A stretch of DNA of 64,000 bases, from the NCBI GenBank assembly GCA_050302075.1, contig JBNLAH010000006.1, positions 1 to 64,000 of the forward strand, given 5' to 3'. Below, in pieces: positions 1,329-3,555 of the stretch. The stretch is from Parachlamydiales bacterium (GTDB lineage Bacteria; Chlamydiota; Chlamydiia; Chlamydiales; SM23-39). The position numbers and the translations under genes are program-made. Below the pieces are notes generated by a model that saw only the letters and a program-made list of their open reading frames with translations, did not search any database and was not told where the DNA came from. Every line of letters begins with the position of its first letter. The stretch's first letter is position 1.

Positions 1329-2756
1329 CTATCCTTTAATAACTAGATGGGGTTTTAATTTAGCCACATTTTTTGCAAGGCTTGCTTTTTCTACAGCTTC
1401 GACAACATCGGAAACATCTTTATAAGCATCATACATCTCCTCTGTAATCGTCCTCTTTGAGGTCGCCAAGACTTTAACTCCCTTTTTTTGCATGTGATCA
1501 ACAACATTAGTTCCCCTCCATGTATTTGTTGACTGATGGCGGCTTTTAGCTCTACCTGCTCCATGACAACAACTCCCAAATGTAATAGGATTTCCAAGAC
1601 CTGCTAAAATATAACTAGCCCTGAGCATGTCTCCAGGAACTAAGACCGGCTGTCCAGTTTCTTGAAAATTTTTAGCAAGTTCAACTGATTCTGGACCAAA
1701 AGCGCGGGTAGCTCCCTTTCGGTGAACACATAATTCCTTTAAGTTGCCGTTGACTTGATGCTTTTCAAACTTTGCAATGTTATGACATACATCATAAACA
1801 AGCTTGATTGAATGATGATCTATTTTGCAGACCTCACTAAATGCCTTTCTAACAGCATGCAAGACCATTTGCCTATTATTGAAAGCAAAGTTTGCGGCTC
1901 CTGCCATTGCACTAAAGTATGCCTTACCCTCCTTGCTTTGAATAGGAGCTGACACTAGCTGCTTATCAGGTAAGTTTTCAGCAAATCCTTTACCTATATA
2001 CTGATCTAAATAATCTTGACATACCTGATGTCCAAATCCTCTCGACCCAGTATGAATGAATAAATATAACTGCCCCTTTTCAATCCCCCATTTGCTTGCT
2101 ATTCCCTTATCAAAGATCTCCTCTACTTCTCCAATTTCTAAAAAATGATTTCCTGATCCAATTGTGCCTAATTGTTTTTCACCTCTTTTTTTTGCAAGTT
2201 CTGATATAAAGTTCATATCTGCCCCGTCAATAAATCCGTTGCTTTCAATATGATCAATATCATCTTGTAGCCCATATCCTTGCTCTATTGCCCACTTTAC
2301 TCCTTTTTGGGCTATTTCTTCATAATCACTCTCGCTTAAACGGTGTGAATTTTTTTGTCCTCTACCTACTCCAGATGGAACTAGGTCAAAAATCTTGTAA
2401 ATAAGTTGGCCTTGAGTCCTTTCATCCAGGTCTTTCAAAGCAATTGGGGCTAGGGCCAATCTAACTCCGCAGTTGATGTCATAACCAACACCGCCCGGAC
2501 TTATTACACCGTCTTCTAAATCCATCGCAGCAACGCCTCCAATTGGGAAACCGTATCCCCAATGAATATCTGGCATAGCAATGCTATAATTTACAATACC
2601 TGGAAGGTGAGCTACATTTCTGACTTGTTCTAAAGGTTTTGAAAAGTCAATATTATTGATTAGTTTTTCTGTTGCAACAATCAAACCTGGGACTCTCATA
2701 TTGCCAGATTTTGGCAACTCAAAAATGGCAGGTCCAACTTCTTTTAGATCATACAT
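1329..2756 (-). CDS. rtcB: RtcB RNA 2',3'-cyclic phosphate/3'-phosphate 5'-OH ligase
   Basis: Motifs MPDIHWGYG, GYDINCG, GSGNHF, HTGSRG, HN, HRKGATRA, CHGAGR, AYKD. ATG at 2756 overlaps the upstream stop, with a GGAG SD inside the upstream gene (the ORF track starts at TTG 2759). Confidence 0.96.
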   Translation of the reverse strand: MYDLKEVGPAIFELPKSGNMRVPGLIVATEKLINNIDFSKPLEQVRNVAHLPGIVNYSIAMPDIHWGYGFPIGGVAAMDLEDGVISPGGVGYDINCGVRLALAPIALKDLDERTQGQLIYKIFDLVPSGVGRGQKNSHRLSESDYEEIAQKGVKWAIEQGYGLQDDIDHIESNGFIDGADMNFISELAKKRGEKQLGTIGSGNHFLEIGEVEEIFDKGIASKWGIEKGQLYLFIHTGSRGFGHQVCQDYLDQYIGKGFAENLPDKQLVSAPIQSKEGKAYFSAMAGAANFAFNNRQMVLHAVRKAFSEVCKIDHHSIKLVYDVCHNIAKFEKHQVNGNLKELCVHRKGATRAFGPESVELAKNFQETGQPVLVPGDMLRASYILAGLGNPITFGSCCHGAGRAKSRHQSTNTWRGTNVVDHMQKKGVKVLATSKRTITEEMYDAYKDVSDVVEAVEKASLAKNVAKLKPHLVIKG

Positions 2757-3555
2757 CAACTATCATCTCCCATTGGGTATATCCGAGCTGTTGAGTAAAA
2801 GACCCATGAAAGCTAACAGCCTTGAAAGGGCTCCCTATTTTAATATCAATATTTGATATAATTTTGTTTAGTTCCATTATAACTTGATCTTGTGATGAAA
2901 TTTCTATATCAGTCTCCAAAAAACCTAAAATATCGGGATAAGAAAAAGCTAAGGCTATTTGAGCATTTATAAATATATTTTGTAGTGATTCACCTCGAAT
3001 GAGAAATGCGATATCAGCTGTGTGGTGTATTTGTTCAAATGCAGGGACAAAGGGATAAATTTTCAACTTCTCATATTCAGAGTTCCCAAGACTTTGATAC
3101 AAGTTAATTCCATCAATGTAAAAAGGTATTTTAATTATTGAGCTTTCCCATTTAAAGATATCTGGATGTTTTCTACAAATGGTTAGATGGGGGTAAAAAG
3201 GCCTTTTAGCTTTTTTAAATTCAATTCCTTGCATTTCAGACCACCTTGAAATATTGTTTCTATAATCTTCAATATTCATTCCAGTTATTATTTCCCCCTC
3301 CAGTGCAACTAGATGTGGGGATCTTTTAGGCAAGCCTACATACTTCGAAAAAATACCGATCGGGCTTAAAGTGCTTTTCGGCTTTGGAAAATTCATTAAT
3401 ATGTTCTTAGCATTCTGATCTTGTCCTCCCAAAAAAAGTATCGTTAAATGACGATTTTCTTCTTTGATGATTTCGTTGCTTAAAAACGTGTCAGGCCATA
3501 TGGCGACAACACTTGCACCAATGAATAAACGATTAGTTTTTTTTTCATCCCTCAT
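2749..3555 (-). CDS. 2H phosphoesterase (ThpR/LigT-like)-archease fusion protein
   Basis: N-terminal RLFIG and two HxT motifs (RHLTILF aa35-41, PHLTICR aa122-128). C-terminal HTADIAF (aa178-184), KAVSFHG and terminal IVDV are archease hallmarks. Adjacent to rtcB. Confidence 0.85.
   Translation of the reverse strand: MRDEKKTNRLFIGASVVAIWPDTFLSNEIIKEENRHLTILFLGGQDQNAKNILMNFPKPKSTLSPIGIFSKYVGLPKRSPHLVALEGEIITGMNIEDYRNNISRWSEMQGIEFKKAKRPFYPHLTICRKHPDIFKWESSIIKIPFYIDGINLYQSLGNSEYEKLKIYPFVPAFEQIHHTADIAFLIRGESLQNIFINAQIALAFSYPDILGFLETDIEISSQDQVIMELNKIISNIDIKIGSPFKAVSFHGSFTQQLGYTQWEMIVDV

Follow-up and report, generated by a model that had tools for sequence, protein, structure and literature searches.

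ThpR/LigT enzymes are widespread, and 2H domains that yield a 2′-phosphate also occur in RNA-ligation settings, in the CPDase of fungal and plant Trl1 and in mammalian CNP; in the case of Trl1 the ligase served depends on ATP and requires the 2′-phosphate, with Tpt1 acting afterwards. In the E. coli and Salmonella rtcBA operon, which goes with RtcR, the ligase RtcB is paired with RtcA, an enzyme that makes cyclic ends. E. coli ThpR (LigT/YadP) is an RNA 2′,3′-cyclic phosphodiesterase on whose use its characterisation paper only speculates; its 2′-phosphate product is inert to RtcB, which does not seal such ends, and its subgroup is defined by the extended motifs HxTxxF and HxTxxR (PMC4201822). 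T. thermophilus and P. horikoshii RtcB are stimulated by archease (PMC4604427, PMC3973293), which in these and other prokaryotes is encoded in an operon with rtcB, and the human RTCB-Archease pair is the corresponding eukaryotic system (10.1101/2023.03.30.534986). P. horikoshii archease needs His9, Asp12, Lys117, Asp141 and its terminal residue (PMC3973293), while in the human protein D51, D178 and the terminal carboxyl bind a third Mn and K156 binds phosphate (10.1101/2023.03.30.534986).

The locus described here combines elements of these systems. In the window (the whole 64,000-nucleotide stretch analysed, from the genome that we call G000) a single 268-aa ORF without internal stops (3555-2749 (-)) joins a ThpR/LigT-type 2H phosphoesterase to a shortened archease and overlaps the following rtcB by 8 nt (2749-2756); rtcB starts at the ATG at 2756, with a TTG at 2759 also in frame (Table 1). 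The earlier note, made from the sequence alone, had placed two HxT motifs, HTAD (178-181), KAVSFH (245-250) and a terminal DV in this ORF, and had put the rtcB Shine-Dalgarno sequence inside it; all of these motif positions are correct in the translation, the overlap is as it had described, and a GGGAG stands 10 nt before the rtcB ATG.

Table 1. Positions in the window of the fusion gene's parts and of rtcB
Feature	Position	Strand	Basis
2H phosphoesterase domain, ThpR/LigT type, fusion aa 1-168	3052..3555	(-)	profile and Foldseek matches
Proximal motif H36-x-T38-x-x-F41	3433..3450	(-)	translation, homolog alignment
Distal motif H123-x-T125-x-x-R128	3172..3189	(-)	translation, homolog alignment
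Shortened archease domain, aa 169-268, with stop codon	2749..3051	(-)	Pfam, profile, Foldseek
H178-T-A-D181, equivalent to P. horikoshii archease His9/Asp12	3013..3024	(-)	alignments; mutagenesis in PMC3973293
K245, equivalent to archease Lys117 (human K156)	2821..2823	(-)	alignments
D267-V268, free C-terminus; bases shared with rtcB ATG	2752..2757	(-)	sequence
GGGAG, ribosome-binding-site-like, for rtcB; within W262-E263 codons of the fusion	2767..2771	(-)	codon usage
rtcB, 475 aa, archaeal/Thermus-type RNA ligase, active site intact	1329..2756	(-)	Pfam, structures, conservation

As read from the sequence, the codons of the putative metal-binding C-terminus double as the rtcB start codon and its ribosome-binding site. 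Codon usage among relatives bears the imprint of this arrangement: D267 is GAT in 79/80 loci (the GAT background is 73%, and D181 is GAT in 66/80) and, by synonymous codon count, E263 is GAG in 67/72 loci against a background of 36%; synonymous choice at the junction is under selection. Wherever there is enough sequence to tell, rtcB lies directly downstream of the fusion (77/77 loci). A promoter and terminator scan gave 11 promoter-like sites where 8.9 were expected, and nothing usable.

An assembly artefact, raised at the outset as a possible explanation, can be ruled out. A word search returned 59 relatives at E ≤ 0.001, most of them spanning 90-100% of the query, both halves occupy one ORF at 78/80 loci, and a separately assembled contig spans the stretch with 0 differing letters, its run possibly being the source of the same DNA. 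The full profile scan yielded 236 clusters at E ≤ 1e-30. Among the best 80 of 111 genome loci, 75 carry the fusion with rtcB adjacent, three carry it at a contig end, and in two a stop or frameshift divides the ORF, rtcB still coming next. The survey of architecture and rtcB linkage that had been proposed found, in 400 genomes of the phylum, many incomplete and related ones not independent, the fusion in 181 and a close rtcB alongside it in 161, leaving 20 with the fusion only, two with close rtcB only and 217 with neither; close RtcB (E < 1e-100) was present in 163/400 genomes and a distant RtcB in 13 more. One family has the fusion in 0/29 genomes. The record titles of the fusion sequences bear Chlamydiota names, ‘Verrucomicrobia’ or ‘uncultured bacterium’, and because the ‘Verrucomicrobia’ sequences mix with chlamydial ones in the tree we infer that the family is chlamydial. 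No relative of the fusion was found in viral contigs (0) or plasmids (0), and a phage or plasmid origin was rejected. A canonical archease at E ≤ 1e-8 occurs in 2/401 genomes, and comparison of the survey tables gave five genomes with a ThpR-like match and no fusion, which makes the fusion the norm for a 2H of that type in the genomes searched.

The neighbours met most often at the 80 loci encode an epimerase (22), a thioesterase (20), a VKOR/SPW protein (15), a carbonic anhydrase (14) or a nucleotide transporter (12), with an RF-1-domain protein and a pseudouridine synthase at six loci each; a third conserved RNA-related gene was sought among these neighbours and none was found. A phosphoribosyltransferase gene is near the fusion in 6/80 loci, and one 596-aa protein (P0166) has an apparent phosphoribosyltransferase domain ahead of the fusion, which may be a genuine three-part fusion or the result of read-through. 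Another archease fusion, unrelated to this one, was seen in genome G067, where a cytidylate kinase is joined in frame to a full-length archease (L198:763-1908 (+), G067:C19), convergent with rtcB at 1913-3361 (-).

The 2H half had been called ThpR/LigT-type, and profiles and models uphold that identity. It matches TIGR02258 at E 5e-8, its score of 33 bits being under the equivalog cut-off of 65.7, which one relative, G395, exceeds (67.7 bits), and a 57-row family profile matches E. coli ThpR/LigT at E 8e-7. The model of this half (pLDDT 95.7, pTM 0.90) has the 2H fold with two HxT/S motifs of the ThpR/LigT class, and its best Foldseek matches are 5h7e, 4qak and 1vdx (E 9e-8 to 6e-7), with drCPDase, ThpR and PH0099 first. 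The extended ThpR motifs are present through F41 and R128, each kept in >95% of 195 homologs; conservation is 188/190 (H), 193/195 (T) and 187/194 (F) in the proximal motif and 194/195 (H) and 190/195 (R) in the distal one. Compared with E. coli ThpR (PMC4201822), the domain shares the 2H fold, HxTxxF/HxTxxR and the strand 1 Phe, but is only ∼19% identical in structural alignment, scores below the TIGR02258 cut-off, has a shorter first helix, and is fused to archease and tied to rtcB. By analogy with ThpR, the 2H half likely opens RNA 2′,3′-cyclic phosphates to 2′-phosphate ends that RtcB would be unable to seal. Superimposable 2H active sites can yield 2′-P, 3′-P or cyclic products (PMC5591277); the product is not safely readable from motifs, and rival readings of this domain therefore keep some weight. 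By profiles G000 has one fusion-type 2H, one archease half and one rtcB, plus a distant 2H-like gene for a 167-aa protein at L196:844-1347 (-) (G000:C11), beside a diguanylate cyclase-like gene.

The C-terminal half (aa 169-268) is shorter than a usual archease, as the earlier note had observed, with ∼100 aa in place of ∼140. Its Pfam Archease match (E 9e-5, 23.2 bits) falls just below the cut-off of 25, and a single-sequence search of solved structures with the window protein gave no real match, while a 77-row profile ranks the archeases 1j5u, 1jw3 and 4n2p first among solved structures. The archease-half model has a pLDDT of 94, and the absence of an archease match or fold, which had been named as what would speak against the domain call, was not what we found: archeases fill the top eight Foldseek rows (TM 0.43-0.70 by query), with a best E of 5.5e-3, none at E ≤ 0.001, and the next family at E 0.28. 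All five residues essential in the solved proteins are kept (H178, D181, K245, D267, V268), and together with the two rankings they support the call. The ∼40 missing residues show in the Asp-to-Lys spacing, 64 in the fusion and 105 in both solved archeases; alignment with 11 full-length archeases places the main gap after helix 2, the strands that follow it being absent.

The adjoining ligase is of the archease-dependent type, by structure match and locus survey. It matches Pfam RtcB over its full length (E 3e-160), its closest solved structures are T. thermophilus 2epg and P. horikoshii RtcB, and D93, C96, H204, H235, H325, N326, K347 and H398 are invariant in 70 RtcB sequences, the first five and H398 corresponding in spacing to the metal ligands and catalytic His of the human enzyme. 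The locus is thus a variant of the archease-rtcB operon (PMC3973293, PMC4604427; for human RTCB-Archease, 10.1101/2023.03.30.534986) whose parts both belong to or resemble known families. It shares with that operon the archaeal/Thermus-type rtcB neighbour, the His, Asp, Lys, penultimate Asp and C-terminal carboxylate, and, in the models, the docking tip, but differs in that its archease is ∼100 rather than ∼140 aa, carries an N-terminal enzyme, spells the rtcB start with its last two codons, and resides in a genome with no intron-containing tRNA. No description of a ThpR-archease fusion was found in the published literature searched, and a prior mention is possible.

Prediction of the complex with RtcB, which had been suggested as a check, gave a score of 0.77 (0.75-0.80 in three runs) against 0.31 for the best of three controls, a value that may reflect likeness to the solved RTCB-archease complexes (8odo, 8odp); it clears the mark set for such scores, which 116/157 solved complexes and 2/215 mismatched pairs also reach. 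Contacts agree between runs to at least 91% and the partner pLDDT is at least 88. All predicted interface residues of the fusion fall in aa 175-268 and the 2H half makes 0 contacts, while on the RtcB side the interface lies near the active site (92-93, 201-202, 402-408), into which the archease tip is predicted to dock. Conservation provides a comparison independent of the model and supports the predicted interface: at 21 interface positions (the four motif residues set aside) agreement with the linked majority is 0.78 for copies next to rtcB and 0.24 for copies apart from it, whereas the other C-terminal positions give 0.54 and 0.43, and ten 2H site residues 0.95 and 0.93.

These unlinked copies amount to a natural experiment on the two halves. 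From 164 loci and the window we kept 122 full-length rows, leaving out duplicates, fragmentary or frameshifted copies, and any shorter than 200 aa or lacking the start of the 2H; 101 are linked to rtcB, 18 are unlinked and three end at a contig edge. Every linked row (101/101) keeps H178, D181, K245 and the penultimate Asp, an intactness that is partly circular as 72 of them were retrieved by archease-motif patterns, and 100/101 keep the 2H motifs. By contrast, 17/18 unlinked rows, 11 of the 17 from one genus, have lost two or more of the four archease motif residues, and 14 of these 17 retain all five 2H motif residues. Restricting the comparison to rows fetched by profile, which cover a subset of the 181 (the 30 best loci, genomes with the fusion only, and the weakest of the linked loci), leaves 28/28 linked rows intact and 17/18 unlinked rows decayed. 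On the tree of the 2H half the decay maps to five changes, at least two of them forced by strong branches. The one unlinked row with its archease motifs kept, L111, is followed by a remnant of rtcB 25 residues long (E 0.17), which suggests a recent loss of the ligase gene; a second such copy (L120) is partial and had been dropped. In G039 the archease half of the fusion is decayed, and elsewhere in that genome genes for RtcB, a GTPase of the CobW type and a full-length archease stand in a row, with insertion-sequence pieces after them (L199:2-1911 (+), G039:C3). The reverse case exists among the dropped rows: in L157 and L158 the 2H is decayed or lost in frame although archease and rtcB are intact, and the 2H motifs of L151 and P0196 are worn. 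Since the archease decays when rtcB is gone while the 2H stays, and a few linked copies lose the 2H, the job of the 2H is separable. Genomes G149 and G061 each have, besides a complete fusion next to rtcB, another copy apart from rtcB whose archease half has decayed (L159, L160).

Taken with the model, the sequences support the view that the archease half serves RtcB. It would likely reload the co-translated ligase with GMP after docking its metal-binding tip in the active site, and by analogy with the P. horikoshii, T. thermophilus and human enzymes this would bring Mn-dependent guanylylation and multiple turnover. The reading of the tether as one healing-then-ligation pathway, taken from the earlier note, finds no support: the 2H is contactless in the model, persists without rtcB, is deleted in some rtcB-linked copies, and has the motifs of ThpR, an enzyme whose product cannot be sealed by RtcB (PMC4201822). 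We consider it very improbable that the 2H opens cyclic ends to a 3′-phosphate and passes them to RtcB, speeding ligation: tight coupling of the fusion to rtcB would suit this, and yeast Usb1 is a 2H enzyme that leaves a 3′-phosphate (PMC5591277), but the extended motifs and closest folds are ThpR-type rather than Usb1-type, RtcB opens cyclic ends unaided (PMC4201822), and human RtcB with archease bound cannot bind RNA (10.1101/2023.03.30.534986). Archease and RNA are mutually exclusive at that site (10.1101/2023.03.30.534986), so the tethered 2H is unlikely to pass ends to RtcB while the archease is docked.

The reading that we favour on balance, with reserve, is that the archease arms RtcB while the ThpR-type 2H takes cyclic ends out of ligation. 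We infer that RtcB and the 2H would draw on one pool of nuclease-broken RNA ends, which the operon would sort: ends held beside a 5′-OH would be resealed by RtcB, and the remainder would be opened by the 2H, removed from ligation and left to decay. The 2H, produced at a constant ratio to the activator, would then act as a competitor or in clean-up and stand outside the ligation steps. Competition for broken ends has a precedent in CNP, a 2H enzyme that lowers RTCB ligation in mammalian cells (PMC13247085). Of the three roles offered earlier for the fusion, a gate that removes ends from ligation would fit best and a primer for ligation least. Against this reading we count the ∼40 residues missing from the archease, the sub-cut-off family scores of both halves and the two unlinked copies that keep their archease motifs; neither a substrate nor a partner nuclease was found. 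Against such sorting we also count the persistence of the 2H without rtcB, which fits an unrelated job equally well.

Such a job is the substance of a rather unlikely alternative in which the archease activates RtcB and the 2H acts on a diester that RtcB never meets, free 2′,3′-cyclic nucleotides or another cyclic or 2′-5′ phosphodiester, the genes having been joined since archease tolerates any N-terminal neighbour. The loss of each half without the other, the want of 2H contacts in the predicted complex and the cytidylate kinase-archease fusion beside rtcB in G067 all agree with it, and ThpR has also been assayed on 2′,3′-cAMP (PMC4201822). However, the 2H site is kept in 100/101 full-length linked rows from many families (rows with large 2H deletions having been filtered out beforehand), and the two known enzyme types share the chemistry of the RNA end on which they act, as would seldom be true of a random neighbour. 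Quite improbable is a role in correcting linkages, under which the coupled enzymes would cooperate, the 2H cutting a 2′,5′-phosphodiester by transesterification to leave a cyclic phosphate and a 5′-OH, which RtcB would reseal as 3′,5′. These products are exactly RtcB substrates, and E. coli ThpR/LigT incises 2′,5′ and not 3′,5′ bonds, cutting being favoured over sealing (PMC4201822); yet the same paper states that no E. coli RNA with 2′,5′ links is known and that ThpR quickly hydrolyses the cyclic end to a 2′-P (PMC4201822), and the 2H persists without rtcB. More tentatively than end sorting, the fusion may be a one-protein RNA-end switch that arms RtcB and either discards unrepaired cyclic ends or cuts wrong 2′,5′ links for 3′,5′ resealing. 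If so, ThpR-type enzymes would gain a defined role in RNA repair, and a 100-residue archease core would be enough to activate RtcB.

The genomic setting bears on the fate of the ends. The four tRNAs of the window lack introns, as had been reported, and introns were called in 0 of the 33 tRNA genes of the genome; tRNA splicing was rejected as the purpose. A tmRNA with its tag peptide was called at G000:C1:255826-256228. The earlier note had seen no rtcA nearby, and a search of G000 (1.84 Mb, 89 contigs, 96% complete) with PF01137 found no RtcA at all, the control matching in 5/14 genomes; Tpt1 was likewise sought in G000 and not found, and among relatives RtcA occurs in 4/101 and Tpt1 in 1/101. 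A repair operon of the rtcBA/RtcR type, with rtcA beside rtcB, is thus not what G000 has, and a 2′-phosphate would not be recycled by the known routes. The RtcA relatives are L200-L202 and G306; three of the genomes concerned (G131, G306, G396) were among those surveyed and have both fusion and rtcB. As in E. coli and Salmonella, RtcB is again paired with a second RNA 3′-end enzyme and there are no tRNA introns, but where RtcA makes cyclic ends the 2H of the fusion would remove them. In contrast to Trl1 and CNP, the ligase here is RtcB, and Tpt1 was not found in G000.

Conserved fusion to an RtcB activator ties a ThpR/LigT enzyme to RNA repair and offers a two-protein test system; it suggests that environmental chlamydiae without tRNA introns share a need for RNA repair. 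The family also provides a natural minimal archease, in which losses of rtcB mark the surface residues that serve the ligase. Elsewhere in the window, BolA and glutaredoxin genes overlap at 5452-6007 (-), an ordinary pair.
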